From an uncultured bacterium (GTDB lineage Bacteria; Chloroflexota; UBA5177; JANWHV01): a stretch of DNA of 64,000 nucleotides. This document shows, in pieces, positions 45,560-63,545 of this stretch. Under the pieces are notes generated by a model. It made no database searches and had not been told where the DNA came from. It saw nothing but the letters and a program-made list of their open reading frames with translations. Location: contig CAWHAE010000007.1 of NCBI GenBank assembly GCA_963827235.1, positions 1 through 64,000 of the forward strand, written 5' to 3'. Made by a program: the position numbers and the translations under genes. Position 1 is the stretch's first letter. Each line of letters opens with the position of its first letter.

Positions 45560-46875
45560 TCACGCGCCGGCCAGGATGGACTCGATCTTGCCCTGGGCAT
45601 CCTTGAGTGCTTGCTCGGGCGTCTTCTTGCCAGTCATGCCGTTGACCAGCTCGGACTCGGCGATCGTGGACATCTCCGTCCAGAACGGCGTCTTGGGCCG
45701 CGACTTCTCGATCCTGGCCTGCTTGATCAGGAGCGGGTACGAGGGGTACTTGCTGATGATCGCGGGGTCGGTGTTGGCGGCGATGTACGCGGGATTCCAG
45801 GAGGTGTGGAGCGTCTTGAAGACCTCCATTTTCTCGGTGCCCAGGAACAGGGCCAGGTCCGTAACCTCCTTGACGTGGTTGCTGAAGGGGTTGATCACGT
45901 ACTGCCAGCCGCCGGTACAGCTATAGGAGCTGCCGCCGGCGAAGTGCGGCGGGTCTGTCACGCCGATCTTGCCGGTCAGCTTGGGATTCGCCTCCGCCTG
46001 GATGTAGGCGTAGTTCCAGTTGCGGTGGTAAATGGCGTTGCCGGTGATGAAGAGCGACAGTGAGATGCTGAGGTCCGCGCTGATGACGCTCGGGAACACC
46101 AGCTTGTCCTTGATGTAGCTGGTCATCATCTCCAAGGACTTGAGGTTTGCCGGGCTGTCGAAGATGACAGCACCCGTCTTGGGGTCGAGGAAATCGCCGC
46201 CCGCGCTCCAGGAGTACTCCATGAAGTTGCAGATGAGCTGCTGGCCGGGATTGTAGCACGGCGCGAACGGCGTCATCTTGGGGTACTTCTTCGCGAGCAT
46301 GACGCCTGGTCGTGCAGCTCCTCGAGGTTTGGGCCGGCTTGAGCCCGTTCGCGTCCAGGATGTCCTTGCGGTAGAACAGGTGCCCGCAGTCGAACATCCA
46401 CGGCATGGCGTAGATATGACCGTTGACGGTGTCGGCCTGGATATTGCCCGGGGTGTAGTTCTTCCACTGCGAGGGCGGGAAGACGCTGTCGAGCGGCAGC
46501 GCCCAGCCGGCGGGCGCCCACTGCGCTTGCCAGATGACGTCCGAGTCGAAGATGTCGATGCTCCCGTCGTGGGCGGAGAGCACGGTGACGAGCTTGTCAT
46601 GGTACGCGTTCGCCGACGCGGAGGGCGCCGGAGTGTACTTGATCGTGACGTTGGGATGAGACGCGGTGTACTGGGCCAGGGTTTCTCTGGCCGTGGGCGA
46701 ACGGAGCAGGGTTGTTACCCAAGCCCATGTAGTTGAGCGTGATACCGCCAGCCGCCTCACTCTTGTTCGCGGTCAGGTCAAGGCCCGCGCTTGCCAGCGC
46801 CAGTCCCGCACCTATCTTCGCACCCGTGCCAAGGAAATCACGCCGCGACATTCCGCGGGTTTGATGCCTCTTCAT
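45560..46875 (-). pseudogene. Tat-exported sugar-binding protein, frameshifted as read
   Basis: MSRRDFL twin-Arg signal, DIFDSDVIW, LFYRKDIL, RNWNY, GGWQYVIN; breaks near 46700 and 46320. Confidence 0.85.
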
Positions 46876-47113
46876 CGTGTTGTTCTCCAGCCTTCAGCGC
46901 GTCGAACGTCCGAATGTTCCACCGATTCAACCAGAGATGCACATCGCGTACCACCGTGTCTTCGCTTGCTCTACCAGCCTGAGATGCAGCTCGGTGCACC
47001 TCCACGCCATCTTCCCTAGGCACTCTCTGCGATCACCTCCTCTCGGTCGCTTTGCGCTAGGCACGGCAGGAGCGCACCCATCCTGGTCCGCGACCCCAAC
47101 TCGCTCCTATGTC

Positions 47114-47158
47114 CTATAACGTTGGAGCTACTCTAGCACTGCCCTCCTGCCTTGTCAA
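47114..47158 (-). promoter_or_regulatory. Sigma70 promoter of the ABC-GH operon with overlapping LacI-type operator
   Basis: TTGACA (47158-47153), N17, TAGAGT (47135-47130); CTATAACGTTGGAG at 47114-47127; related CTACAACGTT at 47412. Confidence 0.7.
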
Positions 47159-47522
47159 GGAAGCGTCCTCGGTTCGCAGGGTCTGAAAATGGTCAGGCAA
47201 AATGCGGGCTTGGGCGTAAGGCTTCCAGGCGCCCCTGTCACAAGTGCGGGGCCTGCCCAGAGGCAATCCGACCTTCGCCAATGACCAACCTACTGGCAGC
47301 AACAGCCCTATTTGTAAGAATTTTCAGACCGTGCCTCGGTCCGTCATCAGAGGAAGTGAGACGTGATGCGGCGCCATAGCTTGAAGCATTTTCCAATTGG
47401 CGGTATTATGCCTACAACGTTTTCGTTCTCCACCGGACGTGCTCGCGTGTGGGTAAGGCGAGCGTGGAGCTATACTGGCAGGTAGTGCGGCGCGCGGATG
47501 CTTGGGAAGGGATCGCTCCGAC

Positions 47523-48560
47523 ATGTCAAGGAATGGGCGGGCCGACAACGGTGTAACGCTCAAGGACGTCGCGGCGCACGCCGGCGTGTCCTTTTCGACT
47601 GTCTCGCACGTCATCAACAATCGTTTCTCGGACGTAGGGCCGAAGACGCGCGAGCGCGTCCATGCCTCGATCCGTGCACTCAATTACCGACCGAACATCG
47701 CAGCACGACGCCTGCGCAAGGCCCGGACCGGCGTACTCGCTCTCACCATTCCGGAAGTCGCCAATCCGTACTTCTCCACGATGATCGGATCGATGTCAGC
47801 GCAGCCAAGGCACAGGGCCGGAGCATGTTGGTCGATATTACGGGCGGCGAACGCGCGGAAGAGCTCGTGGTGGTCCGAGGCATGAGCCCGCACCTGATCG
47901 ACGGTGTGATTCTGTATTCGATTGGGTTGACCGCGGCGGACTGGAGCCCGAGCGCGTGGCCGTGCCGCTCGTGCTCTTCTCGGAGAGGCTGGATCCGGTC
48001 TATTGCGACGTGGTGGAGCTCGACCACGTGGGAGCCGCCCGTTTGGCCACCGAACACCTGCTCCGCATCGGTCGGCGGCGCATCGGATTCGTCGGGGCCT
48101 CAGACATCCGCGCGTCGTGAGCGCAGGCAGGCGTCTCCAGGGCTATCGGGCCGCCCTGGAGGCGGCTGGGCTGGCGGCGGATCCACGTCTCGTGGCGCGG
48201 TCGCCCACCGCATCGTTTTCACGCATGGACGGCATTGCCTGCATGCAAAGGTTGCTCGCCGTGACGCCCCTTCCGGACGCGGTGGTCTGCTACAGCGACA
48301 TCGTGGCACTGGGGGCAATGAAGGCCATTCGCGACGCCGGGCATAGGATCCCTGACGAGATTGCCGTGGTGGGTTTCGACGATATCGAGGAAGGTCGCTT
48401 CTCCACGCCGGCCCTCACGACGGTCGCGCCGGACAAGGCGGAGTTTGGCAGGCTCCTGGTGAGCCTCCTGATCGCACGCATCGATGGCTCCCGTACGGGC
48501 GCCGGAGAACGCTTCGAACCGCCATTCCAGCTCGTCGTGCGGCGTAGCACGGCCGGCTAG
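47523..48560 (+). pseudogene. LacI family regulator, several frameshifts as read
   Basis: TLKDVAAHAGVSFSTVSHVIN, LNYRPNIAARRL, IPDEIAVVGFDDI, PALTTV. Confidence 0.88.
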
Positions 48561-48779
48561 GGACGTAGACCAGATTTGGTAGACGGGACATTTCAACCTC
48601 TGGTCGTACAGGACACTACTCTGCATGGATTCTCGTCGAGACTCTGCGCACCGTGACGCGCTGGACGCCATCCATCGCAGCGTTGAACCGACCTCGAGCG
48701 CGAGACTTGCTACTACTGTGACACGTAGCTCTGCACCCGCTGGGGCCGTGTCACCAAAGGGAGGCGTGGTGTCCGCTGT

Positions 48780-49490
48780 CTCCAGAGGCAGCCATGAAGC
48801 CGAAACCGGAAGTGTCGCTGCAGTAGTATGCCCGCTGCCGACATCCAAGAGAGTCCCGGGCTGGAGGCCACGCAAGATGCCCAGGGCGCGCAGCGCAAGC
48901 GCCTGCTCCAGCGTATTGCGGGCCTCGTGGGCAACCGTGGGGCTCGGGTCGTCATGAGGGTCTGGACTGCCTGTCAGTCTACCGGTGGCAACTCCGCAAC
49001 TGCAGCCAGCGCCGCAGTGCGAAGGCTCGCATCCGGATCGCCCAAGAAGATGCGGACCGCGTTGCCGCTGTCGGCCAGCCTGAACTTCGCTACCACATCA
49101 GCAGCCGTGGCGCATGCGAGTGCGCTGCTGTCGCCCAAGCATGCATGGATTACCTGGGCGGTGTCGGCACTCAGCCGCGCTAGCCGCACCATGGAATCGA
49201 GGGAACTGGCTCGCCTGCCGGCACTGGCTGCCTGATCTTGCAACTCTGTGCACAACTCCTCCTCGACGCCCGGCTCGTATGGTCCGAACAGGTGCATGTC
49301 GTAGCCAGCAAGATACACATCAAGCCACCGCTCACACCAGCCCAGAAAGTCGACGCCGTCGACGGAGTAGAGCGGGCGCCCATCGTCCGCGTATAGCACA
49401 TGGCCCCGCGCCGCCCCGCTGACCACCAACACCGCGTAGACAGTGCAGCCCTGATGGCAAACCGCCAGCGTCCTGTGCAGCAGTCTGTCC
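48780..49490 (-). pseudogene. SMI1/KNR4-like domain plus HEAT-repeat protein remnant
   Basis: TLAVCHQGCTVYAVLVVSGAARGHV...DFLGWCERWLD, then HEAT-like LGDSSALAC..AA and LGDPDASLRTAAL; stop at 48974, no start. Confidence 0.6.
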
Positions 49491-49498
49491 CGGGAGGC

Positions 49499-49701
49499 CT
49501 AACGCGGCTGCCAACTGGCGCCGCCGTCACTGCTGGCCTGGATGGTACTGCCGCCTTCCTGCACGACGACCAGGCAGGTGCGGCTGGAGTGACAGGCGAT
49601 GCCATTGACGTAGGTCCAGGTGCCCGAGCCGTGCGCCTGCCAGGTGGCGCCGCTGGTCCGCACGGTGCCGTCGTCGCCAACCGCCAGGCAGGTGCTGGTG
49701 T
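49499..49701 (-). pseudogene. BNR/YCF48-like beta-propeller 3' fragment
   Basis: TSTCLAVGDDGTVRTSGATW...IACHSSRTCLVV...SSDGGASWQPR* (Asp-box SxDGGxxW). Confidence 0.6.
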
Positions 49702-49705
49702 GCTG

Positions 49706-49933
49706 TTGACACCGCGCTCCAGCTCACTGAGACCACGCACGCTCAGTCTGGCTCGCTCAGCCAATACCTCTGTAGTGCCGCTGGGAGTGACCCTGAAGCA
49801 ACCGTGTGCAGGCGCAATTATGTGGGTCAGAAGTGTGGGTGCTGCCTGGTGCGTGCCTCCACGAAGCGCTATCGTAGGAGCGATGGGACCCAGGAGTGGC
49901 CATGCCCGCGAGGAGAAGCAGGTCATGAGACGG
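49706..49933. repeat. Degenerate copy of the XRE-HTH 5' region and upstream segment at 63064-63440
   Basis: Minus strand EVLAERARLSVRGLSELERGVN; 27-bp identity 49822-49848 = 63327-63353. Confidence 0.85.
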
Positions 49934-50367
49934 GTGCACACATGGCGGAGTGTGCCGGTCCTCTTGTCAGTGCTGGCCCTGGCGGGCGTGAGCGCCCTCA
50001 GAGTCTCCGTACGGCAGGGGTGCCCGACCGCCGGCGCGAGCACGCTCAGACAAAGCCACGCGTTTTGTTCCGGCCGCCGCACAGGCAGGGACGGCGGCAC
50101 TCTCGCGGCTGGAGGAGACGGCGGGCGCAGCTGACAATGCTTACGGCAACCGCACGCGCGCAGGATGTGACCGCTGGAAGCGATGGCCCAAATCACATCG
50201 ACCTGCATATGGCCGATTGCCGGAACCGGCTAGGGAAAAAGGTCGTGCTGGTAAGGAGAGTGGAGCGGCGCCAGTACGCCTAGTGGCCGGCCAGCTGCAG
50301 TGCATCGCGGATTCATAGGAATCGGCACAACGCTCAGGCGAAGGGGTAGCAGGGTAGGGGGAAGACT

Positions 50368-53300
50368 ATGAACGTGAGTCGAGTACGTCGAATGGCGCTT
50401 TGCGCGCTAGCAATCTGCATGGCATTCCCGGCCTACAGGTCTCACGGTGCCTCGCGCGCCGTCGCCGCCGCCCCCACGCCGGTCGCCGCGCCGGCCGGCT
50501 GGCTCTCCGTCCTGGCGGTCGGGACCACTCCTCCTGACGTCCTGCCCCAAGCATATGTGGCGTCCGTCGCGGCATGGCGCACCCTTCCGCTGCAGATCGC
50601 CGAGCAAGCCGCCCCGGCCTTCCGGGACGCGGCGGGCGGCGGCGGCGCCGCAACTGCCCTGCTCGCGCAGACCCTGCTTGGACAGGCCACCGTCACGCCT
50701 GACCCGCGAGCGCTGGCGCAGAGTCGCCTCGGCGCCGTCCTGGGCCCGCTGGCGCAGACCCTGGGCGTGGTGTCCGCCACACAGGCTGCCCCCAGCGCGC
50801 AGGAGCTCGCCTCCAGCCTGGTCGATCCGGCTACCGGCGTCCTGCACGTCATCTACCAGGACCTCTCAGTTCCCGCGCGCGGCCAGCCGCTGGCGCTGCA
50901 GCGTACCTTCGTCTCCGGCAGCACTACCGCCAGTGCCATGGGCAACGGCTGGGCCTTCACGTACGGCACCCACCTGGCCTACGATGCCAGCGGCAATCCG
51001 CTCATCGAGGAAGCGACCGGAGCTGTCACGCACTTCGCCCTCTGGCAGACGCCCTCCCTCTATCTGGCGCTGGACGCTGCGGCATGGGAGATCCTCTCGC
51101 TCGACCGAAGGGGCGGCGCTACCCGCCTGCTGGCCGACGGCAGCAGCGAGCAGTTCGACGCACTTGGGAGGCTGGTGCGGCTCCAGGATCGCGACGGCAT
51201 TGGGCTGACCATCAACTACACGGGCGCCAATCTGGCGTCCGTCGTCGATGCGGCAGGCCGCGGCCTCCGCTTCACCGAAAGCAAGGCGGGCCTGATCAGC
51301 ACGGTCACCGATCCCGCTGGAGCGGTTATTCACTACGGGCACGACGGCGCCGGCAATCTGACCAGCGTGACCACTACTGCCGGAGCCACCACCAGGTTCA
51401 CGTACAGTACGCCGGCGATAGACTCCTACGACACCACGCGCCTCACCGGCATCACCCTCCCTCGCGGCAGCACAATCCGCTTCAGCTACGACGCCGGGGC
51501 GCGCGTATCGCATGTCTCAGGGCCGGGTGCCATGAGCACCAGCATCACCTACACGGGCGGCGCCGAGCCCGGAGCTGTGCGTACCGACCTCGTCGACGCG
51601 ACCGGCGCGCACACCGAGATCGACTCGTTCACCACCGTGCCCCTGGCCGGCAGTGCGCAGCTGCCGATGGTCACACGCACTGTAGACGCCAGCGGCAAGA
51701 CCATGACCGTCACCAGTGGACCGTCAGGCACGGCTGTCGAAGACGGCGACGGCAGGCTGACGCGGATCACCGGCAACGCGGCAGGTCCGGCCAGTGCTGT
51801 CCAGCCGCCAGAAACCGGCGCCGCCCGCCTGGGCTACGATGATGCCACTTCCACGCTCTCCATGCTGACCGGCGTGTCCGGAAACGCTACCACGCTGGTG
51901 TACGATGCGGCAGGCCATCTGGCCGGCATCCGTGACGGTACCGGCGCGCTGACCAGGATCGAGCCGATCGCCCCGAACACGTTCCGCGAGGTTGGCCCCG
52001 ATGGTGGTGCCGCCGTCGTGCAGTTCGACGCGGCAGGAAACGTCATCGCGCTGACCGACGCCATGGGTCGCAAGACCACGTTCAACTGGGATGCTGACGG
52101 CCGGCTCACCCGTATCTCGGATCCAGCCCACGGCAGCTTGACGTATCGGTACGGGCCGGGCGGCGCTCTGCTGGCCCGCACGGACGCGCTCGGAGCGGTG
52201 ACCAGTTACGGCTACGACGCCGATGGTAATCTCACCTCGATGCGGGATGCACTGGGTAACACCTGGCGCTTCGCCTATGACGCCTGCGACCTGCCGGTGA
52301 GTGTAATCGATCCGCTTGGCGACACGGCTCGCCTCAGTTACGACGACGCCGGCCGGTTGACGATGGTCACCGACCCGCTTGGGCACGTCACGCGGGCGAC
52401 CTATGACGGCGCCGGCCGCGTGGTGTCCGTCACCGATCCGCTCGGCCATGCCACGCGCTATCGCTATGGACCGGCCGGTGAGCTCATCGCCGCGACCAGT
52501 CCTGCCGGGCGTACCACCCGGTATAGCTACGATGCCGCCGGCCAGCCGGTCGCCGTGACGCGCGCGGATGGCAGCAGCACGACGCTCGTGTACGACGCTT
52601 CTGGACGGCTGACCGGCAATCGTGCGGGCGCCGGTCCCACAACCGAGTACCGGTACGACGGAGCGGGACGGCTGACCCAGCGCACCGTGCCCGATGAGTC
52701 GGGCTCCTCGTACACCTACGACGCCGCGGGCCACCTGGTGAGCGCCGGCAACGGGAGCGGCACGATCCGCGACGCGTACGACGCGGCCGGCGATCTCACC
52801 GCGACGGTGGACACGAGCGGCCACACGGTCCGCTACACCTACGATGCGGCAGGCCGGCGAGCGTCTATGACCTCTGCCACGGGTGCGGTTACTCGCTACG
52901 CGTACGACGCGGCAGGCCACGTCACCGCGATAGACGATCCCCTGGGCAATTCGACCTTCCGCTACGACGCGCTGGGCGAGCGCATTGGCGCGACGCTGCC
53001 GGGCGGCATCGCCGTCGCCTATGGCTACGACAAGGTGGGCCGGCTCACCGATCTCACCTATACTCGGGGAACGGCCGTCATCGCCCGTTTCGTCTACGGC
53101 TACGACCGCGACGGCAATGTGGTGCTGGAGCAGTCGCTGGGCGACACTCTGCACTACCGGTACGATGCGGCAAGCCGGCTCACCGCCGTACAGGGCAGCG
53201 CTCGGGGTGACGACGCCAGCTACGCCTTTGACGCCGATGGCAATCTCCTCTCCTCGCCCACGGGGGGCGCCCTGCGCTACGACGCGGCCGGACGGCTGCT

Positions 53301-56300
53301 CACGGCCGGGAGCGCGAGCATGGCCTACGACGCGGCCGGCAGGGCGATGACCGGCCTGTCAGGTGCCGTCTATGGCTATGACCAGAGCGGCAATCTGCTG
53401 GCTGCCCACACCGGTGGTGCCGACGTCATGTACAGCGAGGATGCGCTGGGCAGGACCGTCACGCGCTTGGAGGCCGGCAACATCACTGCGACGGTCTTTG
53501 ACGGCAGTGACCCGGTCGCCGAATTCGGCCCGGTCCCGTCGGCGGTCGCCCGCACCGTCTATGGCTCCTGGATCGACGAGCCGCTCGCCTTTTCGGCGAA
53601 CGGAGAGACGTACACCTACGTCGTGGATCGGCTTGGCTCCGTGCGCATGGTGCTGGACGGCGCGGGCAAGCTGGTCGCCACGCTAAGCTACGACGCATAC
53701 GGCAGGCTGACCGGTAAGACGGGGTCCGCGCCGACGACGCTCGGCTTTGCCGGCCGCCCCTACGACCCGGCTACGGGCCTAATCGATCTGCGCAACCGCC
53801 TCTACGATCCGGCGCTTGCCCGCTTCCTCTCCCCCGACCCGCTGGCCCAGCCTGGGGCGGCGACGTACCCCTACGCCGGAGACAATCCCGCGACGCAGAG
53901 CGATCCGCTTGGCCTGTGCGCGGAGCCACCGAACGGGCCCGAGACCGCTTGGGCGGCCGCGTCGCATGGACTCCCTCCCCTGATGGAGGAGGTTTTCGGG
54001 AAGGCGGGCGGTACCTTCTTCGAGGGCTTCGAGCTTTGGGAGGCTTCCAAGCAATTTAACGCGGCGAGCGAGGCATTTGGTGGCGGGGAGGGTGAAGGAG
54101 GCAACGGCTGCGGCGTGAACAACGCGGATCCCACCTTCATCAATGGCGCCGGCGTTGCCGCCACAGGCCCCGGCAGCGCAGCGGGCCACTCGACGCTGAC
54201 GCTCACCAGGGACGCGTCGGGCGGATCCGTCGAAGCGCTGTTCCCCGTTGCAGCAGCCGGCACCGTGACCGTCGACGTGTACGACCTGCACGGCCGCCTC
54301 ACGCGTGCGCTGGCGGCGCGGCCGGCCTCAGCGCCTGTCCTGGATATCACCTGGGACGGACGCGACGTTGCCGGGCGCGAGGTTGCCGACGGCACCTACT
54401 ATATGCTCGAGACTGAACAACCCGCTGCCGTGGGCGCGCAGGCGACGCATGCACTGCGCACCATCGCGGTGACGACGGGCGCTTCCTGGTCCGTCGCCAT
54501 GCCCGCGCCGCCAAGCCCGCCCGCTGCCGCAGGCGTCGCGGCGCAGATTGTCACGCCTTCCAGCGGCAGCCTGCTGCGCGGCGTAGTGCCGATCGACGGC
54601 GTGGCCTCAGGGCCAGACTTCGACCACTATCAGCTCGACTACGGCCCGGGCACCAGTCCCACGCACTGGACCGGCATCCTGGACACAAGCTCGGGCACGC
54701 CTGCCGTGCCCGACCAGGGCCCGGTGACGCTCGCCCGCCTGCACACCCTCTCGGGCAACCTGGGCACACTGGATACCGGGCTCTCAGACTACTTCTACTA
54801 TCGTTCGAGCGGCGCCCAGGGCCTCAGCGGACTCTACACCATTCGCCTGCGTGTCTACGGCCGGCACGGCGAGGAGGCCCAGGCCTTCACCTGGATCGTG
54901 GTAGGGCGGGTCGCCACCTACGTGCAGGACGCGACCATCGCCAGCCCGGATGGGCAGGCGAACCTTGCCGTACCCAGCCTTGCCCTCCACGACATCGCCC
55001 AGGTATTTGCCGTCGAGCCCACCACCTCGACAGTGCCGGTTCCCACGTACCTGCGGAAACTTTCGTCGGTCTACGCGCTCTATCCCTCCGGCTACGTCTT
55101 CGGCAGTCCGGCGACGTTGCGCATGCACGTCGCCGCGGTCGCGCCCGGCGTGCAGATCTATGCGTGGGACGCCGGCTCCGCCACCTGGCAGCCGCTGCCG
55201 AGCACGGTAGCACGCGAGCGGCACGGAGCCACGCTCACTACGCCGGTCGCGCGCCTCGGCCCGGCGCCGGCCCTCTACGCCGTGCTGGCACCTGCTGCCA
55301 CTCCTGCTGCGCCCGTGATCTTTCCACCCGCTGCCACGACGACGAGTGCTGGCACCCTGACGCTCGCCGTCGCGACCCGGCCGGGCCTGGCGGTGCAGAT
55401 TCTGGCCGGCGCGCGACCGAGCGGGCTGCGTGCCGTCGCCGGTGCCGATGGCCTGGCCGTAATTGCGGGTATCGAGCTCCGTCCGGGACAGAACCGCTTC
55501 ACGGCTGTAGCTCAGGATAGCGCCGGCCATACCAGCGCTCCCTCACAAGTGGTCACCACTACATATGCGCCAACGGCTCGGAAGCTCCCGGGTTCCGCTG
55601 CACTACTGCCGGATGTTGCCGGAAGCAGCGCCGCAAGCTCGGGTGCCGGTTCGGCCGGCCCGCCTCCGCCGGTCGTGGACTCTCCCACCTTGCACGCCGT
55701 GCTGGCTTCCGACTTCCAGCGGCCGCAAGACCTCTGGCCGGGCAGAATAGCGCCGCTCGGCGCCACCACCAGCGTGGTGACCGACGGCGGCTACACCCCG
55801 CTCAAGGTCACAGCGGGCCGCACGGGCGATCTCACCACGTTCCTGCCCGTCTCTTCCTTCAATCTCGCCACCCACCCGCTGATCACCTTCTCCTACAAGG
55901 TGCCTGCCGGCGTGTACGTCGATCTCGCGGTACACGCCAACGGTACCTGGTGGGTCGTGCCGTTGAGCGACAACCCGCCCAGTGCCAACGACCATGAGCG
56001 CACCTACTTCGCGCCGCTCGAAGGCGGCCCGGGGCTGCACTTCCAGCGCGACAACCACTGGCACCAGCTCACCATCAATCTCTACCAGCTGATCCGCAAC
56101 GAGCTGCCCACCGGGTCAATCGAGGTGGACCGCATGGCGTTTGGCGACTGGGAGCCGAGCGGGTGGATGGGCGTACGGCCCGCCGAGATGAACGTGCCCG
56201 GCTCCAGCTTCCTGCTCGCCGGCATGGCAATGCCGGCCGTCAGCAGGCGGAACGCCGCCTCCTTCTCGTGGTCCGAGCCCGGTACCGCGGGCATCACGGC

Positions 56301-59040
56301 CTACAGCTACGTGCTCGACCAGCAGCCTGCAACGCTACCACCCGCGCGGGCGTCCGGCACGACTACCGCGACGACGGTTGGGCCGTTGGCCAGCGGCAGT
56401 TACTGGCTGCACGTGCGGGCTCGTGGCCGTGCAGGCACGTGGGGTCCTGCCGCCAACTATCCCTTCATGATCGACACCCTGCCGCTGCGGGTCGGTGCGC
56501 CGGATCCTGGTCCGGGCGCCACGGGCGAGGCCTATGTGACCATTCCCATTGAAGACCCCGGCGCGAGCGGCGTCGATGTCTCCACCATCCGTTTCCAGGT
56601 GTTCGGCAAGACATATGGGGCCGGCAGCAACGTCGTTTCCTATGATCTGACCCACGGCGTGGCCGCGCTCAATGTCGGCTGGATAGACCCGGCGCCGCCC
56701 CAATTGTTCCCCGGCGGGAAGGTGCCTGTGACCTTGCTGGCCGCTGCCGACGCGGCGGGGAACCAGCTGGTCGAGCCCCTGTCCTGGACGTACACCCTGG
56801 ATATTCCCAACGGGTTGCCCGGTGGAGCACAACTCTTGACTACCAGGGGCGGCGATGCACCGACCTTCTCACCCGACGGCACGAGGGTCGCTTTCATCTC
56901 GAGCCGGTCAGGTGCGGCGCACCTGTGGACCATCGACGCTGGAGATCTGGCCGAACGGCAGCACACCGCGCGCCAGATCGTGGCCGGGCCGGGTGCCGAC
57001 GCCGACCCGGCGTGGTCGCCGACCGGAGACCTCATCGCCTTCGACTCCACCCGCGACGGCAGCCGCCATCTCTACCTTGTCCATCCAGACGGCAGCGGCC
57101 TGCAGCGCATCACCAGCGGAGCGTCGGGCGACATGCAGCCCACCTGGTCTCCGGACGGCAAGCAGATCGCCTTCGTGAACGACGGGAACCTGCTGGTGGT
57201 GAACCGCGACGGCACCGACCTGCACACCGTCATCGCCGACGGCGAGCACGCGGTCCACGATCCCACCTGGTCGCCGGATGGCAGGACCATTGCCTACCGT
57301 CACAGCCTCTACGTCGACCAGATCTGGACCGTGCGACTCGACGGCACGCATGACGGCATCTTGACGACGCTGGCGAGCGGCGAGGCACAATCCTCGCCGG
57401 CCTGGCTGGCCGACGGCCGCGTGGCCTACGTCTCGCTGCGTGACAAGGTGTCCGCTCTGTACGCCGTCGAGCCCGACGGTACCGAGCAGAGTGCCCTGGT
57501 CGGACAGCCGCCAGCTCTGCTGTTCACGCCGGCAGCCTCGCGCGATGGCTCGACCATCGCCTTCGTCTCGACCCGGGCCGGCGGGCACAATATCTACGTC
57601 AGCCGCCAGTTCCGCATCGACCCACTGGACGTGAGCGCTGCGAGCTTCGACGCGTCTGCCGGCCACACGGTGTCCATCCGCTACGGCCTCACCTCCTCGG
57701 CCACTGTCTCCATCGGCATCAGCGACAGCGGCGGGCGCGCCGTGCGCACGCTCATCGTGCACAAGATGCTTCCCGCCGGCGTGCGGCAACTGACCTGGGA
57801 CGGCAGGGACGATCACGGCCGTCTGCTGGGCGAGGATGTCTACTCCATCCAGGTGACGGCGCAGGCACCGGGCCTGCCTGTACTCAGGCGCGGGTTGGGC
57901 GTGAGCATCGACGACGTGAGCCGTCATGGCAGCCTGCGCATACACGTACTGCACGCCGGCCAACTAGTGGCGGGCGCTAACCTGACCGTGTCGCGAGCCA
58001 CTTCGCAGGCGTATGTGCTCGATACCACGACGGACAAGACCGGCGCGAGCACAATCAGCCTGAGCCCGGGCACGTACGACGTATTGGCACAGGCCGGCGA
58101 CGGCCTGCAAGGCAGCGCGCAGGGTCTGCTCGTGCGCGCGCACACGACGCTGGATCGGACGATCGCGCTGGCTGTGCCGGCGGTTCGGCAGCCGGGCGCA
58201 CCAGGCGTGGCGACCACGCCGAGCCCCGTAGCAGCCGCCTCGGCAACTGCGCCGGCGACGCCGGTCGCTGCGGTCACGGTCACTGCGACGCCGTCGACCG
58301 GCGGCGCGACGAAGGGAACGCTGGTGGTGACCGTGCTGACGTCGTCCGGCCAGCCGGCAAGCGGCGCAGGAGTTGACATCTACCAGGGGAACAAGCTGGT
58401 CGCTTACTCCGGCACGGACAGCAGCGGTTCGGCCAGCTTCAGCCTCGCCGCTGGCACCTACAGCGTGCAGGTCGGCCTGGGTAGTGCGAAGGCCACGTTC
58501 AGCGGCGTGAAGGTCTCCGCTTGCACTACGACCAGGCAGACGGTGCGCCTCGGGGCTGGCACGCTGGTAGTGCATGTGGACCTGGTGCCGGGCCAACCGG
58601 CCGCCGGCGCCGAGGTGGACATCTACCAGGGGAACAACCTTGTCAGCTACTCTGAGACCGACAGCAGCGGTGCGGTCACCTTCACCCTCAACGCGGGTAC
58701 ATACACGCTGTCTACCAAGTATCGTCTTGCGACCGGGCCAATGATCTCCGCGACAGTCACGGGTGGTGCATCGACCTCGAGCACGATCGTGCTGAACGCT
58801 GGTCAACTGGTGGTGAGCGTGCGCACGAAGTCGGGAGCGCCGGCGGTCGGCGCCGAAGTGGACCTCTCTCTGAAGGGCGCCTTGCTCGCATACCCCAGCA
58901 CCGACAGCACTGGGTCGGTGACGTTCACCGTGAGCGCGGGGACCTACGCCGTGCAGGCCAGTCAGGGTGGCGTCACGTCGCCCATGGTCTCTGTCACAGC
59001 GGTGGCCGGTGCCGTGGTCAGGAGCACGATCGTGCTGTGA
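50368..59040 (+). CDS. Giant secreted RHS/YD-repeat protein with multi-domain C-terminal extension
   Basis: Signal peptide; DUF6531-like VDPATG..DLSVP..LQRT..MGNGW; many YD repeats; core RLYDP..RFLSPDP..PATQSDPLGL; FlgD-like WDGRD..G x2; PD40 P.WSPDG repeats; terminal TDSSG..F.L.AGTY repeats. Confidence 0.92.
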   Translation: MNVSRVRRMALCALAICMAFPAYRSHGASRAVAAAPTPVAAPAGWLSVLAVGTTPPDVLPQAYVASVAAWRTLPLQIAEQAAPAFRDAAGGGGAATALLAQTLLGQATVTPDPRALAQSRLGAVLGPLAQTLGVVSATQAAPSAQELASSLVDPATGVLHVIYQDLSVPARGQPLALQRTFVSGSTTASAMGNGWAFTYGTHLAYDASGNPLIEEATGAVTHFALWQTPSLYLALDAAAWEILSLDRRGGATRLLADGSSEQFDALGRLVRLQDRDGIGLTINYTGANLASVVDAAGRGLRFTESKAGLISTVTDPAGAVIHYGHDGAGNLTSVTTTAGATTRFTYSTPAIDSYDTTRLTGITLPRGSTIRFSYDAGARVSHVSGPGAMSTSITYTGGAEPGAVRTDLVDATGAHTEIDSFTTVPLAGSAQLPMVTRTVDASGKTMTVTSGPSGTAVEDGDGRLTRITGNAAGPASAVQPPETGAARLGYDDATSTLSMLTGVSGNATTLVYDAAGHLAGIRDGTGALTRIEPIAPNTFREVGPDGGAAVVQFDAAGNVIALTDAMGRKTTFNWDADGRLTRISDPAHGSLTYRYGPGGALLARTDALGAVTSYGYDADGNLTSMRDALGNTWRFAYDACDLPVSVIDPLGDTARLSYDDAGRLTMVTDPLGHVTRATYDGAGRVVSVTDPLGHATRYRYGPAGELIAATSPAGRTTRYSYDAAGQPVAVTRADGSSTTLVYDASGRLTGNRAGAGPTTEYRYDGAGRLTQRTVPDESGSSYTYDAAGHLVSAGNGSGTIRDAYDAAGDLTATVDTSGHTVRYTYDAAGRRASMTSATGAVTRYAYDAAGHVTAIDDPLGNSTFRYDALGERIGATLPGGIAVAYGYDKVGRLTDLTYTRGTAVIARFVYGYDRDGNVVLEQSLGDTLHYRYDAASRLTAVQGSARGDDASYAFDADGNLLSSPTGGALRYDAAGRLLTAGSASMAYDAAGRAMTGLSGAVYGYDQSGNLLAAHTGGADVMYSEDALGRTVTRLEAGNITATVFDGSDPVAEFGPVPSAVARTVYGSWIDEPLAFSANGETYTYVVDRLGSVRMVLDGAGKLVATLSYDAYGRLTGKTGSAPTTLGFAGRPYDPATGLIDLRNRLYDPALARFLSPDPLAQPGAATYPYAGDNPATQSDPLGLCAEPPNGPETAWAAASHGLPPLMEEVFGKAGGTFFEGFELWEASKQFNAASEAFGGGEGEGGNGCGVNNADPTFINGAGVAATGPGSAAGHSTLTLTRDASGGSVEALFPVAAAGTVTVDVYDLHGRLTRALAARPASAPVLDITWDGRDVAGREVADGTYYMLETEQPAAVGAQATHALRTIAVTTGASWSVAMPAPPSPPAAAGVAAQIVTPSSGSLLRGVVPIDGVASGPDFDHYQLDYGPGTSPTHWTGILDTSSGTPAVPDQGPVTLARLHTLSGNLGTLDTGLSDYFYYRSSGAQGLSGLYTIRLRVYGRHGEEAQAFTWIVVGRVATYVQDATIASPDGQANLAVPSLALHDIAQVFAVEPTTSTVPVPTYLRKLSSVYALYPSGYVFGSPATLRMHVAAVAPGVQIYAWDAGSATWQPLPSTVARERHGATLTTPVARLGPAPALYAVLAPAATPAAPVIFPPAATTTSAGTLTLAVATRPGLAVQILAGARPSGLRAVAGADGLAVIAGIELRPGQNRFTAVAQDSAGHTSAPSQVVTTTYAPTARKLPGSAALLPDVAGSSAASSGAGSAGPPPPVVDSPTLHAVLASDFQRPQDLWPGRIAPLGATTSVVTDGGYTPLKVTAGRTGDLTTFLPVSSFNLATHPLITFSYKVPAGVYVDLAVHANGTWWVVPLSDNPPSANDHERTYFAPLEGGPGLHFQRDNHWHQLTINLYQLIRNELPTGSIEVDRMAFGDWEPSGWMGVRPAEMNVPGSSFLLAGMAMPAVSRRNAASFSWSEPGTAGITAYSYVLDQQPATLPPARASGTTTATTVGPLASGSYWLHVRARGRAGTWGPAANYPFMIDTLPLRVGAPDPGPGATGEAYVTIPIEDPGASGVDVSTIRFQVFGKTYGAGSNVVSYDLTHGVAALNVGWIDPAPPQLFPGGKVPVTLLAAADAAGNQLVEPLSWTYTLDIPNGLPGGAQLLTTRGGDAPTFSPDGTRVAFISSRSGAAHLWTIDAGDLAERQHTARQIVAGPGADADPAWSPTGDLIAFDSTRDGSRHLYLVHPDGSGLQRITSGASGDMQPTWSPDGKQIAFVNDGNLLVVNRDGTDLHTVIADGEHAVHDPTWSPDGRTIAYRHSLYVDQIWTVRLDGTHDGILTTLASGEAQSSPAWLADGRVAYVSLRDKVSALYAVEPDGTEQSALVGQPPALLFTPAASRDGSTIAFVSTRAGGHNIYVSRQFRIDPLDVSAASFDASAGHTVSIRYGLTSSATVSIGISDSGGRAVRTLIVHKMLPAGVRQLTWDGRDDHGRLLGEDVYSIQVTAQAPGLPVLRRGLGVSIDDVSRHGSLRIHVLHAGQLVAGANLTVSRATSQAYVLDTTTDKTGASTISLSPGTYDVLAQAGDGLQGSAQGLLVRAHTTLDRTIALAVPAVRQPGAPGVATTPSPVAAASATAPATPVAAVTVTATPSTGGATKGTLVVTVLTSSGQPASGAGVDIYQGNKLVAYSGTDSSGSASFSLAAGTYSVQVGLGSAKATFSGVKVSACTTTRQTVRLGAGTLVVHVDLVPGQPAAGAEVDIYQGNNLVSYSETDSSGAVTFTLNAGTYTLSTKYRLATGPMISATVTGGASTSSTIVLNAGQLVVSVRTKSGAPAVGAEVDLSLKGALLAYPSTDSTGSVTFTVSAGTYAVQASQGGVTSPMVSVTAVAGAVVRSTIVL

Positions 59041-59220
59041 GCTGCGGCCGGGCCCGCGGCGGAGAGATGATTTGAGCCAGAAGGAGACAAGGAGGCGCAA
59101 GATGACTTGAGCCAGGAGCAGGCGCCCGACCACAATCCTTGTACTGAGGATCCCCGGTGAACACCAGTCCCATCTGATCACACTGCATGTAATAGCCGCC
59201 GACTGGAAAGGAAGACGTCC

Positions 59221-59526
59221 ATGAACGGCCTGAAGGGCACCATGAAGACGCTCATCGGCGGGGCTTCCGTGGTGTCGTACCGCGGCGCCGTCACCTGTTG
59301 TGTGATCGGCGCCGCCTGCCCGTGCCCACATGGCATCTGCCCGGCCGGGAGCTTCGTCGTGAAGAGGATCACCCAGAAGCAGGACCCATGCGTCGTGGGC
59401 GGCTTTAGGCAACTCGAAGTAGAAGCATTGGCGGCGACGAACACCTTCACCCCGCTGCTCAAGATTCTCGCCACGGACCGGGCGACGGTGCGGTGCGTGA
59501 CGCTGCTCCCCGTCGTCATGAACTGA
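59221..59526 (+). CDS. Small Cys-rich hypothetical protein
   Basis: GAAAGGAAG RBS, high GC3 codons, 7 Cys including TCC..CPCPHGIC. Confidence 0.5.
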   Translation: MNGLKGTMKTLIGGASVVSYRGAVTCCVIGAACPCPHGICPAGSFVVKRITQKQDPCVVGGFRQLEVEALAATNTFTPLLKILATDRATVRCVTLLPVVMN

Positions 59527-60693: not shown

Positions 60694-63210
60694 CTACCTA
60701 CCGTACCGATGTGCCAGAGCACTGGCCTCGTCGATCGCAGCTGCGAGCGGCATCGATCGGCCGGACCTCAGGGCATTCTCGACGGTCTCGCCGAGCAGAT
60801 GCCGCAACCTGGCGTCTATCGCACGGTAGCTGGCACTCTCCGCCGGTGACACCGGAGCACAGACCGCATCGCGCAGTGCGGCTGCGGCGCCGAACAGCCT
60901 GCCACCTGTCTCCGCGGCGCCGAGCTCAGCTGCTGTCGCCGCGAGTGCCTCCAGGCACTGGGCGACGTTCCTCTTGTTGCCGATCTCGCGCTCGAGCGCT
61001 AGGCTCGCGCCAAAGAGTCCCGCTGCCCGAGCGTGTCCACCCTGCGCCTGGAGCACGAGTCCCAAGTTGTAGGTTCCCATGGCGATGCTGGACCGGTCTC
61101 CCAGACCCACTGCGAGCGCTTTGTGTTCGGTGAGAAGCGCCGTCGCGCGATCAAGGTGCCCGAGCATGCGCTCGGCATCCGCGAGATTGAGCAACGCGAT
61201 GCACGTGCCGCGGGTGTTGCCCCGCTGCCGGGTGAGCGCCAGGCCCTCCTCCAGCACCGGCATCGCCTGCTCGGGCCGCCCCAGTTCAATGAGCAGCGCC
61301 CCATGGTTCGTGAGCACCGTCGCCAGCAGCGCATCATCGACGAGAGTGCGAGCCAGCCGCGTTGCCTCCTCGTAGCAGGCCTCTGCCCGAACGTAATCGC
61401 CTTGATACTTGAGGGCACTCCCCTGGTTGACAAGGACCACCGTGGCACCGCGGGCGTCGGCCGCTTGACCGAACAACTCGACCGCCTCCTCATAGGCGGT
61501 CAGAGTCAGCGCGAGGTCGCCCTGCTCATTGGCGAAATTGCCGAGCGCGTTGAGTGCGCGGGCCCGAAGCCCCGCTGGTGCCTGGGGGCTCGCGGCAAGC
61601 ATGCGCTCAAGCCAGCCGCGGCCTTCACTCAGGTAGCCGCGGACAAGCCAGAAGCGATACACAGCTACCGCTAGGCGGAGCCCCAGTTCCCCGCGGTCTG
61701 GTGATTGCAGACTCCAGTCAAACGCGGCGCGGATGTTGCCATGCTCGCGCTCAAGCCTGTCGACCCACTCCGCTTGTGCAGCGCCCTGGAGTCCAGGCCA
61801 GGCTTGTTCCGCCAGAGCCAGGTAGTAAGCTGCATGGCGATCGCTGACGCCGCGGGCCTCGCCTGCTGTCGCGAGACACTCCAGGCCATACTCGCGGATG
61901 GTGTCCAACATGCCAAAGCGCGCTTCTGGAGACGGACCCGGCATGCGCACCATGAGGTTCTTGTCGACCAGCGCGAGCAGCCATCCCAGCATGTCATCTT
62001 GCAGACCTCCCGTCATCTGGCACACGGTCTCGGCAGCTTCCAGGGTGAAGCCACCGGCAAAAACGGCCAGCCGCCGAAACAGTGTCTGCTCTCCCACATG
62101 CAACAGGTTGTAGCTCCAGGCAAACGCGCTGCGGAGCGTCTGCTGTCGTTCCGGCAGGTCGGAAGCGCCTCTGGTCAACAACTGCAGGCGTTTCTCCAGC
62201 CGGGACAACAACGCCTGGGGCGGCAGGAGCTTGACCCAGACCGCGGTCAGCTCAATGGCGAGGGGCAGTCCGTCTAGGCGGCGGCAGATGGCCGCGATCG
62301 CAGCCGCCGTCGCGGGCGTGAGTCTGGTTTCCGGCTCGATTGCTTGAGCGCGCTGCATGAAGAGCGTCACAGATGCTACCCGGGCCAGCTCATCCATGGA
62401 ACACTCGCCCCGATCGACCCAGTCCATGTCGGGCAGTGCGAGTGGCCGCACAGGGAATTCGTGCTCGCCTCGCACATGCACGGCAACGCGGCTTGTCACC
62501 AGCACCTTCAGCCGGGCACAAGCCGCGGTGAGATCCGCTAGCAGGAGTGCGGCTTTCGCCACGTGCTCGAAGTTGTCGAGTACCAAGAGCACGTGTGTGC
62601 CAGCCAAGTCTGCCGCAAGGGCCTCGCTCAGGGGTTGTCCGCTCTGCTCGCGGATGTTCAGTGCTTGAGCAATGGCAGAGGCGACGAGGGAGGCGTCACG
62701 CAGCGGTGCGAGCGAGACGAACACGGCCCCACCCGCGAAGTGCTTGGAGAGATCGGCGGCGACGGCGATGGCCAGGCTGGTCTTGCCAACGCCGGCAGGT
62801 CCGGTGAGGGTGGCCAGACGAACATCGTCGCGGCGAAGGAGGTGGGCGACTCCCTGGACGTCGTGCTCGCGGCCGACGAGTGGTGCCGGCAACGCGGGTA
62901 GCGTCGAGCCAGCCGGGAGGGCCAGTGAGCCAGACTGTGAGGCTGCAACTCCTCGGCCCGGACCACGCGTGCGCACTACCGGGGCATCGAGCGCAGTCTG
63001 TTCCGCTGCCGAGAGTCCCAGGGCACGGGCCAAGCGCGCGACCGTATCGGCATGGGGCACCAGGTTCACGCCGCGCTCCAGGTCGCTGAGGCCACGCACA
63101 CTCAGCCCGGCTCGCTCGGCTAAGACCTCTTGGGACAGTCCGGCGGCCAGGCGATAGCGCCGCAACAACTCCCGGAAGGATCCCCGAGCGCCGGGCTCCG
63201 TCTTGTCCAT
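60694..63210 (-). CDS. XRE-HTH + NB-ARC/STAND-type NTPase + TPR regulator
   Basis: LRRYRLAAGLSQEVLAERAGLSVRGLSDLERG, LVGRE, GPAGVGKT (Walker A), LLVLDNFEH (Walker B), GLPLAIEL, C-terminal TPRs. Confidence 0.93.
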   Translation of the reverse strand: MDKTEPGARGSFRELLRRYRLAAGLSQEVLAERAGLSVRGLSDLERGVNLVPHADTVARLARALGLSAAEQTALDAPVVRTRGPGRGVAASQSGSLALPAGSTLPALPAPLVGREHDVQGVAHLLRRDDVRLATLTGPAGVGKTSLAIAVAADLSKHFAGGAVFVSLAPLRDASLVASAIAQALNIREQSGQPLSEALAADLAGTHVLLVLDNFEHVAKAALLLADLTAACARLKVLVTSRVAVHVRGEHEFPVRPLALPDMDWVDRGECSMDELARVASVTLFMQRAQAIEPETRLTPATAAAIAAICRRLDGLPLAIELTAVWVKLLPPQALLSRLEKRLQLLTRGASDLPERQQTLRSAFAWSYNLLHVGEQTLFRRLAVFAGGFTLEAAETVCQMTGGLQDDMLGWLLALVDKNLMVRMPGPSPEARFGMLDTIREYGLECLATAGEARGVSDRHAAYYLALAEQAWPGLQGAAQAEWVDRLEREHGNIRAAFDWSLQSPDRGELGLRLAVAVYRFWLVRGYLSEGRGWLERMLAASPQAPAGLRARALNALGNFANEQGDLALTLTAYEEAVELFGQAADARGATVVLVNQGSALKYQGDYVRAEACYEEATRLARTLVDDALLATVLTNHGALLIELGRPEQAMPVLEEGLALTRQRGNTRGTCIALLNLADAERMLGHLDRATALLTEHKALAVGLGDRSSIAMGTYNLGLVLQAQGGHARAAGLFGASLALEREIGNKRNVAQCLEALAATAAELGAAETGGRLFGAAAALRDAVCAPVSPAESASYRAIDARLRHLLGETVENALRSGRSMPLAAAIDEASALAHRYGR

Positions 63211-63440
63211 GATGAGCCGCCTGCTGGCAATACTCGGTCCGCTGCTGGCTTCGCCTCGCCGTCTATTATGCCGCACACGGGGTAACGCTGGGTATGGAAT
63301 TGCAGAATGCTTGCAAGCGCAATTGCGTGGGTCAGAAGTGTGGGTGCTGCCTGTTGCCCGCTCCACCGGCACACTATCGTGGGAGCGGCCGAGCCTGGGG
63401 CGTATCGTGTACACGTGGAGAAGAAGGTCGTGAAGCGGGG
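63064..63440. repeat. Source copy of the duplicated HTH/promoter segment
   Basis: GCGCAATT..GTGGGTCAGAAGTGTGGGTGCTGCCTG..CTATCGT.GGAGCG..GGAGAAG.AGGTC.TGA shared with 49812-49930. Confidence 0.85.
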
Positions 63441-63469
63441 CAAGCGTTGTTGCCGCCGCGGCGAGACGG

Positions 63470-63545
63470 CCCGCCATGGCTGCGGTCGAGCGCTACAAGC
63501 ACGAGCGTGGCGTTGCCGGTCGATGGCTGCTTGCTCGCCCAGTAG
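63470..63545 (+). pseudogene. Possible SDR C-terminal scrap
   Basis: WLRSSATSTSVALPVDGCLLAQ* resembles the SDR tail (L.S..AS..TG..LPVDGG). Confidence 0.35.

Follow-up and report, generated by a model that had tools for sequence, protein, structure and literature searches.

Architecture of the RHS gene and its tail

The DNA analysed here, which we call the window, comprises the first 64,000 nucleotides of contig CAWHAE010000007.1 from the assembly of an uncultured Chloroflexota bacterium (GCA_963827235.1). On its plus strand, at 50368-59040, lies an open reading frame (ORF) of 2890 aa plus stop, encoding a protein of 296 kDa that begins as a rearrangement hotspot (RHS) shell, reaches a predicted self-cleavage site at the end of an Rhs-associated core, and then continues for a further 1707 aa (174.6 kDa). 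This tail comprises a short linker and the modules of a long arm. All parts of the ORF described below are on the same strand.

The N-terminus resembles a signal peptide (aa 1-28; 50368-50451), with three arginines, a hydrophobic core and the motif SHGA. It was judged by eye, a putative Sec signal peptide being recognised from MNVSRVRRMALCALAICMAFPAYRSHGA at the protein start; a Shine-Dalgarno-like GGGGGAAG is located 4 nt upstream of the ATG. An Ala/Leu/Gln-rich region follows (aa 29-151; 50452-50820), which had no Pfam match at E <= 1 and a ratio of nonsynonymous to synonymous substitution (dN/dS) of 0.25 against the orthologue in genome G001. Next comes DUF6531, the customary N-terminal domain of RHS shells (aa 152-223; 50821-51036; Pfam E 1.5e-09, 38.5 bits with a cut-off of 24.1), and then the RHS/YD-repeat shell itself (aa 224-1107; 51037-53688), in which RHS_repeat (PF05593, E 8.2e-93) matched in 16 stretches and YD_repeat_2x (E 5.1e-83) in 11. 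The teneurin-type model TEN_YD-shell (PF25023) scored 43.8 bits against a cut-off of 50. When the shells were aligned for gaps specific to a class, one 15-column deletion near aa 601 was seen, a signal too weak to interpret in an alignment of repeats. By Pfam, no feature of Tc toxins (SpvB, TcdB mid-N, the TcB propeller gate) was found in the protein, and neither NHL nor fn3 matched ahead of the shell at E <= 0.1, the sole propeller being the PD40 domain behind it.

The shell closes with the Rhs-associated core (aa 1108-1183; 53689-53916), recognised by the NCBIfam model Rhs_assc_core (TIGR03696) at 67.1 bits with a cut-off of 32.5. It carries R1144, D1157 and D1179 and ends in DPLGL, the sequence at aa 1178-1184 reading SDPLGL|C, so that the predicted cleavage site is L1183|C1184. 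The best alignments to solved structures were with an Rhs protein (8h8a), the bacterial teneurin-like protein BiTLP (9pt5) and mosquito SGS1 (8fjp). In BiTLP, R2103, D2116 and D2140 are catalytic and L2144 is the cleavage residue (PMC13018210). R1144, D1157 and D1179 align with that triad, and L1183 with the cleavage residue.

Behind the site lies an acidic linker of 70 aa and 7.1 kDa (aa 1184-1253; 53917-54126) with two cysteines, Cys1184 and Cys1248. The arm then opens with DPTFIN (54127-54144), the local form of a junction motif, [DC]P[TS][FY][IVL], that recurs in relatives. It continues with a first immunoglobulin (Ig)-like domain of the FlgD type (aa ~1263-1358; 54154-54441), detected by NCBIfam and by PDB 3c12 (E 3.5e-05); in the PDB sequence search this domain matched FlgD only. 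Module A (aa 1383-1745, ~360 aa; 54514-55602) consists of an Ig-like unit, an unknown beta domain and a Big_6-like Ig, and module B (aa 1763-2160, ~400 aa; 55654-56847) ends in an FN3/Y_Y_Y-like Ig. A PD40/TolB-like beta-propeller (aa 2161-2420; 56848-57627) follows, with five PD40 stretches and a TolB-like match at aa 2164-2346, and then a second FlgD-type Ig (aa ~2424-2510; 57637-57897; Pfam match at aa 2431-2499). Four prealbumin- or carboxypeptidase-regulatory-like repeats, seen in the sequence, complete the protein (57928-59037); one stands before a P/A/T-rich linker at aa ~2601-2650 and three after it. Pfam matches in this last region were to bMG3 (above its cut-off), SpaA and SdrD_B, and to CarboxypepD_reg in relatives. 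Modules A and B had no Pfam family at E <= 1 save sub-threshold Big_13, Y_Y_Y and Glucodextran_B matches on Ig units, and the PDB sequence search gave them no solved relative apart from a weak FN3 match to chitinase A1. Precomputed database annotation lists PF26549, PF26550 and PF23381 for this protein, three accessions that the Pfam version searched here does not include.

Much of this layout had been read from the letters in a first-pass annotation, and most of it held. The core end at L1183 with both Asp positions and the 1707-aa continuation is borne out by the ORF, the core model and the BiTLP alignment, the two FlgD-Ig domains and the propeller by Pfam, NCBIfam and PDB 3c12, and the four repeats around the P/A/T linker are visible. 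The labels given to the middle part fared less well. Nothing matched in Pfam at E <= 1 on aa 1512-1641, called ZU5-like (and ZU5 is absent from the 25 families found in 37 homologues), nor on aa 1762-1961, called CBM-like; the Ig units named there have just the sub-threshold scores given above. The annotation had foreseen that a toxin fold might turn up in the tail. None did: no toxin family was found by Pfam or NCBIfam in the window protein at E <= 0.1, nor in scanned relatives at E <= 0.01 or stricter.

Conservation and selection

The same continuous ORF is present in three of the four other genomes of the genus (G001, G003 and G004), while G002, an 83% complete assembly in 720 contigs, gave no match to the gene. 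G018, a genome flagged as unpublished, was counted in the tally of that search and underpins none of the statements made here. The G001 orthologue is 75% identical over aa 3-2884, and those of G003 and G004 show 53% identity in the tail and 41-45% in the shell. Across ten segments, dN/dS ranged from 0.11 to 0.47 between the window and G001 and from 0.02 to 0.33 between G003 and G004. The Rhs core, at 0.18 and 0.10 in the two genome pairs, had the lowest or near-lowest values in the shell half, and the tail was as conserved as the shell and not hypervariable. GC content at third codon positions (GC3) was 0.73-0.89 and highest in the ORF frame along the whole length, including the junction of shell and arm. 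A word-indexed protein search added four proteins of the same build among its eight matches; locus scans with a single junction protein gave no close relative in the genome or metagenome contigs searched.

The ORF is confirmed as a real gene under selection and not an assembly artefact. The source genome is a 21-contig assembly with an estimated contamination of 9%, and the first-pass annotation had raised the prospect that two genes are joined near 54.1 kb by a mis-join or a missed stop. That explanation is extremely improbable: the unbroken frame is repeated in the assemblies of G001, G003 and G004 as well as in other database proteins, the junction has no stop and an uninterrupted GC3 periodicity, and the trees of shell and arm, described below, are congruent.

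A family of RHS-arm proteins

With aa 1184-2160 as the query, a HMMER scan over 1.84 billion representatives gave 1896 matches at E <= 1e-3 and 214 at E <= 1e-30. Among the best 150 of the 1896, 12, the window protein included, have an Rhs core ahead of the arm; together with the orthologues and one Planctomycetota metagenome-assembled genome (MAG) locus, L021, they form the set of 17 RHS-arm proteins considered here. This amounts to the architecture search for an RHS core followed by FlgD and PD40 that the first-pass annotation had proposed, and it did find further proteins of that layout. These, which we call class I (~3000 aa; RHS, FlgD-Ig, A, B, PD40, FlgD-Ig), include the window clade, P0054, P0063, P0064, P0148 and L021. 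Class II proteins (P0119, P0133, P0135, P0138 and P0152) are shorter (~2000 aa), with the order RHS, A, CBM11/CBM30. P0138 is assigned to candidate division WOR-3 and a 65%-identical fragment of the window clade to Chloroflexota; the family spans at least three phyla, namely Chloroflexota, Planctomycetota and candidate division WOR-3. The class II shells of P0119, P0133, P0135 and P0138 measure 805-904 aa, ~200 aa below the median of 64 ordinary shells (1078 aa), and P0133 has a weak match to TcdB_toxin_midN.

In a FastTree phylogeny of 77 shells, class I forms one clade (SH-like 99) apart from the 64 ordinary RHS shells, and class II a second (SH-like 98); possession of an arm needs two changes on this tree, against a mean of 12.3 when labels were shuffled. 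In the module B tree (114 sequences), the 10 arms linked to RHS shells group together and divide in the same way as the shells (two changes vs 9.7), with one long-branch non-RHS row falling among them. The agreement of the two trees implies that shell and arm have been inherited together since one or two old fusions. Of 401 genomes sampled from the window's phylum, five have the arm, and four of these five belong to the window's own genus; in the phylum of L021 it was found in 7 of 401, where two are RHS-linked. The family is rare and old. In G401, the Planctomycetota genome to which L021 belongs, the RHS-arm gene contains the sole Rhs core.

Four residues, R1144, D1157, D1179 and G1182, are invariant in all 17 proteins. 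The autoprotease looks active, as a motif without a role would hardly stay so constant across phyla. A further, divergent Planctomycetota protein, G455 (L103:3-8798), combines DUF6531 and RHS repeats with a hydrophobic hairpin, DPTFVV, FlgD-Ig, PD40 and a C-terminal transmembrane (TM) helix. The last 260 aa ahead of its DPTFVV contain a Pro/Glu/Asp-rich stretch.

The segment between the cleavage site and the arm

In the 17 members, 65-556 aa separate the site from the junction motif, which most often reads DPTFIQ. This segment measures 77-200 aa in most relatives, where it is either hydrophobic or rich in Gly/Ala, and in P0148 it reaches 556 aa. A stretch with Kyte-Doolittle hydropathy (KD19) >= 1.6 was present in 10 of the 17, eight of which have values of 2.0-3.0. 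P0054, P0063, P0064, P0148 and L021 carry a two-helix hairpin (KD 2.2-3.0) and end in a TM helix with an Arg/Lys tail, while P0006, P0158 and P0133 have Gly/Ala-rich versions with few charges. In four proteins (the window protein, P0003, P0138 and P0152) the segment is neither hydrophobic nor Gly/Ala-rich, and aa 1184-1253 of the window protein have no stretch with KD19 >= 1.6 and none of the hydrophobic helices that mark an SGS1-like arrangement, which at the level of sequence 10 of the 17 do show. The linkers of G003 and G004 are 98% identical in aligned columns (dN/dS 0.024). A search for short RHS proteins ending in a linker of the G003 type gave one 382-aa fragment, which was uninformative.

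In both trees the window and G001 branch within hairpin-bearing lineages, which points to their short linker as a derived loss; the window linker appears, from these comparisons, to be a remnant of the hydrophobic segment of its relatives. This segment and the DPTF junction are the key comparative feature, and one that the first-pass annotation had missed. At least 20 non-RHS proteins have the motif at their arm start as well, in many cases behind Cys-rich CDxDN heads, and in RHS-linked and other giant proteins it may also come right after a hydrophobic helix. A domain edge, a calcium site and a second site of self-processing are candidates for its role. It was seen at the arm start in P0015, P0016, P0018, P0020, P0030, P0034, P0035, P0082 and L102 (G045). 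At the metagenome locus L143, a VWD domain starts with GDPHF at the position matching DPTF.

The arm as a widespread chassis

Outside the RHS-arm family, module A often stands directly after the signal peptide, and module B is widespread, typically followed by PD40 and FlgD-Ig/CHU_C. Domains found beside the arm modules in 23 scanned matches include CBM30, CBM11, PA14, F5/8-C, PKD, cadherin-like and FG-GAP. Among 80 genome loci retrieved with an A+B profile, 74 ORFs have module B and only two of these an Rhs core, at L020 (a Chloroflexota MAG) and at L021. The other 78 loci are mainly from Armatimonadota, Planctomycetota, Ca. Zipacnadia, WS1 and Lentisphaerae/Victivallales. From its distribution, the arm appears to be an independent, extracellular and non-toxic chassis, most of whose carriers have no RHS part. 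The first-pass annotation had suggested a large binding or scaffold arm, and the company kept by the modules across the 1896 representatives agrees with it; reading the tail as a non-toxin arm of this kind is supported by its domain content.

Several giant non-RHS proteins (P0015, P0017, P0018, P0020, P0029, P0034, P0128 and G045) share with the window protein the junction, as DPT[FY]IQ, as well as FlgD-Ig, module B, the PD40 propeller and FlgD-Ig/CHU_C-like domains. They differ in their heads, which are Cys-rich repeats of the Dicty_CTDC type or unnamed domains instead of an RHS cocoon. The protein of G045, from another family of Chloroflexota, also has module A and CarboxypepD_reg repeats, its arm running A, B, PD40, two FlgD-Ig and CarboxypepD_reg behind a non-RHS head. 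No characterised example of these arm-bearing giants was found in the literature search.

Genomic setting and background controls

The window's own genome contains 28 Rhs_assc_core matches, 27 of them above the cut-off. After 22 other core ends, the open frame runs for 110-690 aa, against 1707 aa here. Those other ends read DPSG or DPTG and then Q, K, A or another residue in the position of DPLGL. On contigs C8, C10, C12 and C15 of this genome (G000), many Rhs cores lie in tandem clusters, a large conventional RHS arsenal. As a background sample we used 80 generic RHS loci from a metagenome scan seeded on RHS repeats, in which 62 loci supplied 72 core ends. The 68 frames that close within their locus have tails of 72-891 aa (median 155), five of them over 600 aa, and two open-ended tails exceed 2660 aa. 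Of these seven long tails, one is an ordinary PT-HINT pretoxin and six are Ig-rich non-toxin arrays, so that long Ig-rich tails follow 6 of the 72 background core ends, with arms unrelated to that of the window. At the six loci (L136, L127, L118, L162, L150 and L143) these tails range in length from 740 aa to over 2660 aa and take the form of DUF7619 with He_PIG, Big_3_5 or Flg_new_2, of FG-GAP with fn3, or of VWD with Big_13.

A Gly/Ala-rich, low-charge start was found in four of the seven long tails, vs 8 of 64 short background tails. All four long-tail cases belong to the six Ig-rich loci. The order of Rhs core, greasy segment and long Ig arm thus recurs with arms of unrelated kinds, and the greasy segment also stands alone as an RHS payload, in keeping with the published membrane-active payloads Tse5-CT and the C-terminal domain of BiTLP. 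The 64 ordinary shells of the shell phylogeny are another set, retrieved with a length limit of 1589 aa on the protein, which makes their short tails an unfair control.

As the first-pass annotation had noted for the window, the gene has no company of the kind expected for a fired toxin. PAAR (PF05488) and VgrG/Phage_GPD (PF05954) had no match in the whole genome, which is 95.9% complete, and matched in control genomes; no immunity gene was found, the downstream ORFs being without a Pfam match and none of them conserved beside the orthologues. The flanks have nothing in common with those of orthologous loci save a weak ABC-transporter match 5-7 kb away. A Cys-rich ORF of 101 aa (59221-59526, plus strand) starts 180 nt past the stop in the same frame, with a GC3 of 0.86 and a Shine-Dalgarno-like GGAAAGGAAG; it had no Pfam match and was not found beside the orthologues, and an antisense ORF at 59178-59519 has its GC3 signal in common with it. 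Convergent with the RHS-arm gene, on the minus strand at 60694-63477, is a regulator of 927 aa (XRE-type helix-turn-helix, NB-ARC/STAND ATPase and tetratricopeptide repeats), again not conserved beside the orthologues. Upstream, at 46600-50367, the ORFs are all without a Pfam match and show little contrast in GC between codon positions (GC3 0.56-0.73, vs 0.82 in the RHS gene); this region is possibly non-coding or made of poorly conserved genes. Rfam and promoter/terminator scans of the region gave nothing of note.

A proposed capped arm and the competing explanations

In the arrangement that we infer, which covers export, cleavage, where the linker sits, what the arm does in binding and what the ancestral form carried as payload, the class I protein would be exported by Sec, with the DUF6531 plug, the YD shell and the Rhs core forming an N-terminal head in front of the giant arm. 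After export the shell would fold and then cut the chain at L1183|C1184 into pieces of 119 and 175 kDa. The 70-aa segment behind the cut, probably closed by a Cys1184-Cys1248 disulfide, would stay lodged in or at the cocoon, while everything from DPTF onward (FlgD-Ig, A, B, PD40, the second FlgD-Ig and the prealbumin-like repeats) would lie outside the shell and work as a glycan- or surface-binding stalk. After cleavage, shell and arm would be held together solely by non-covalent contacts. The placement of the linker follows by analogy from SGS1, Tse5 and BiTLP, in which the cavity is lined by the residues that immediately follow the site (PMC9935623, PMC10684867, PMC13018210).

That of the arm was inferred from size alone. 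The part behind the cleavage site has a volume of ~211,000 A^3 (1.21 A^3 per Da) and the linker ~8,500 A^3, whereas the cavity of BiTLP measures ~44,000 A^3, a volume that its authors regard as the limit on payload size (PMC13018210). The tail would thus be some five times too large for an RHS cavity, and the linker alone would fit. In size and type, the segments of the relatives resemble membrane-active RHS payloads, so that the ancestral form was probably a cocoon shielding a membrane-inserting segment tethered to an adhesin arm; the window form would most likely be a capped adhesin or scaffold that delivers no toxin, its hydrophobic piece and anchor having been lost. To this overall reading, a self-cleaving cocoon capping the N-terminal segment of an arm that lies outside as an adhesin, we give about even credence.

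Several observations weigh against it, and some of them favour other explanations. The suggestion that the arm binds glycans or surfaces comes entirely from the domains that accompany its modules. The window linker, besides being short, is the least conserved part of the protein (56% identity and dN/dS 0.47 against G001), and with no hydrophobic segment in it the cocoon may here be without content. In G455, moreover, no Rhs-associated core is detectable. These last points would suit a scaffold of the teneurin style, in which the cocoon serves an adhesin as its structural hub and the chain leaves the shell by a gap, stays covalently continuous and carries the autoprotease motif as a silent relic, and teneurins do show that a chain can exit a YD shell with domains outside (PMC5851990). 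Teneurins, however, have lost the second Asp motif, their alignments ending at query position 154-155, before DPLGL, and the invariant R, D, D and G across phyla are hard to explain without a function; dN/dS in the core is also at or near the minimum of the shell half. An uncleaved scaffold seems unlikely.

The hydrophobic piece may also be a part of the arm, such as a hairpin in the membrane, because in G045 it precedes an arm with no RHS part (head, hydrophobic stretch, CNADPSFIV, arm). Hairpins of the Planctomycetota type (KD 2.5-3.0) are hydrophobic enough for capture in the producer's membrane during Sec export. In P0054, P0063, P0064, P0148, L021 and G455, DPTF comes 0-3 residues after the second helix, and all six also have the C-terminal TM helix with its Arg/Lys tail. 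On this explanation head and arm would be two ectodomains joined through the producer's membrane, and the window lineage would have dropped the hairpin, its protein becoming soluble or wall-bound. Against it, the loop between the helices has no positive charges, P0006 and P0133, with their Gly/Ala-rich versions, fall short of the hydrophobicity that a TM hairpin needs, and segments of the same Gly/Ala-rich type end 8 of the 64 ordinary short RHS tails, where they are necessarily payload. We consider this explanation quite unlikely. Still more doubtful is a conventional polymorphic toxin that would release a cryptic payload from the linker or from modules A and B on contact, the arm serving only to aim. 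No named family covers the linker or the ~800 aa of modules A and B, relatives have membrane-active-looking segments after the cleavage site, and a genome with 28 Rhs-core matches is rich in RHS weaponry. But hundreds of surface proteins without an RHS part contain modules A and B, in many cases right after the signal peptide, the tail is conserved like the shell, no downstream gene is conserved, the window linker is not of the hydrophobic kind, and G401 has no other Rhs core than that of its RHS-arm gene.

Beyond the capped arm, a more active device can be imagined, which we hold to be improbable. In it, the cocoon would contain no free toxin but would cap a membrane-inserting hairpin tied covalently to the adhesin arm; once the arm binds a target surface, the cocoon would release the hairpin, which would enter the membrane of a neighbouring cell. 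If so, the outcome would be either a tethered pore or a protein that bridges two cells, the Planctomycetota-type arms being themselves anchored in the producer by their C-terminal TM helix. The window's Chloroflexota lineage, with hairpin and anchor lost, would then be an intermediate on the way from RHS weapon to adhesion receptor, the same road that has been proposed for teneurins, taken independently.

Comparison with known systems and significance

The literature search found no paper on an Rhs core followed by a long adhesin arm, and the supplements of PMC13018210, which hold architectures of teneurin-like proteins (TLPs), could contain related cases. The first-pass annotation's view of the architecture as undescribed stands to this extent; it is not a one-off, being shared by a family over at least three phyla, and it has a precedent in mosquito SGS1. 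By analogy of build, SGS1 would be the closest precedent, followed by teneurins, because it combines an intact cleavage site with hydrophobic helices in the shell and a further domain beyond. In SGS1 (PDB 8fjp), a salivary gland surface protein, the Rhs/YD shell retains the cleavage site and the three residues of the autoprotease; predicted TM helices that directly follow the site are enclosed by the shell and extend to an opening, and the Tox-SGS domain lies beyond them, not in the shell (PMC9935623). Like the window protein, with whose Rhs core it aligns at E 3.2e-16, SGS1 bears carbohydrate-binding and propeller domains on the same chain. Its receptor domains, however, precede or decorate the shell, whereas those of the window protein all follow it; its outside domain is ~300 aa and removed by furin, against an arm of 1637 aa; it is eukaryotic and described without a signal peptide, where the window protein is bacterial with a putative one; and it has the hydrophobic helices that in our family only the relatives possess (PMC9935623).

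The first-pass annotation had called the architecture teneurin-reminiscent, which fits loosely. Like the window protein, teneurins and TLPs are cell-surface proteins in which a YD shell shares the chain with a beta-propeller and a domain of the transthyretin/prealbumin type. The order is inverted, as that annotation had noted, the propeller and adhesion domains coming before the shell in teneurins and after it here, and the NHL and FN-plug domains of teneurins were not detected in the window protein by the Pfam models searched, which included no dedicated FN-plug model. Metazoan teneurins have lost the autoprotease and are uncleaved, their C-terminus exiting the shell with domains outside (PMC5851990), whereas the triad is conserved in the window protein and in all 17 members of the family.

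Two bacterial systems also bear comparison. BiTLP has the same triad as the RHS-arm proteins, a hydrophobic, membrane-active C-terminal domain and a disulfide that tethers the cleaved piece (PMC13018210). The C-terminal domains of bacterial TLPs average ~15 kDa, lie inside a shell without an opening and are accompanied by a downstream immunity gene (PMC13018210), in contrast to 175 kDa after the site and no such gene seen at the window locus. Tse5 of P. aeruginosa consists of a shell and a core and cleaves itself to leave an encapsulated, hydrophobic C-terminal fragment of ~15 kDa, which the Gly/Ala-rich or hydrophobic segments of our relatives match in size and type (PMC10684867). Tse5 ends with that payload and is fired by the type VI secretion system (PMC10684867), unlike the window protein with its putative signal peptide, its giant arm and a genome without PAAR or VgrG matches.

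RHS cocoons are understood as capsules for small toxins, and to our knowledge the exceptions, teneurins and mosquito SGS proteins, are both eukaryotic. For annotation, the family counsels caution: a protein with an 'RHS repeat-associated core' need not be a toxin. Its members differ by nature in whether they have the hydrophobic segment, the membrane anchor and the Rhs core, which makes a direct comparison possible. It offers a testable link between adhesins and membrane-active RHS payloads. The family would also provide a bacterial model for a chain that is partly inside and mostly outside an RHS shell. It indicates that bacteria themselves build proteins in which a cocoon that looks competent for cleavage heads a giant arm of putative binding function, in an arrangement that has long been stable in several uncultured phyla.

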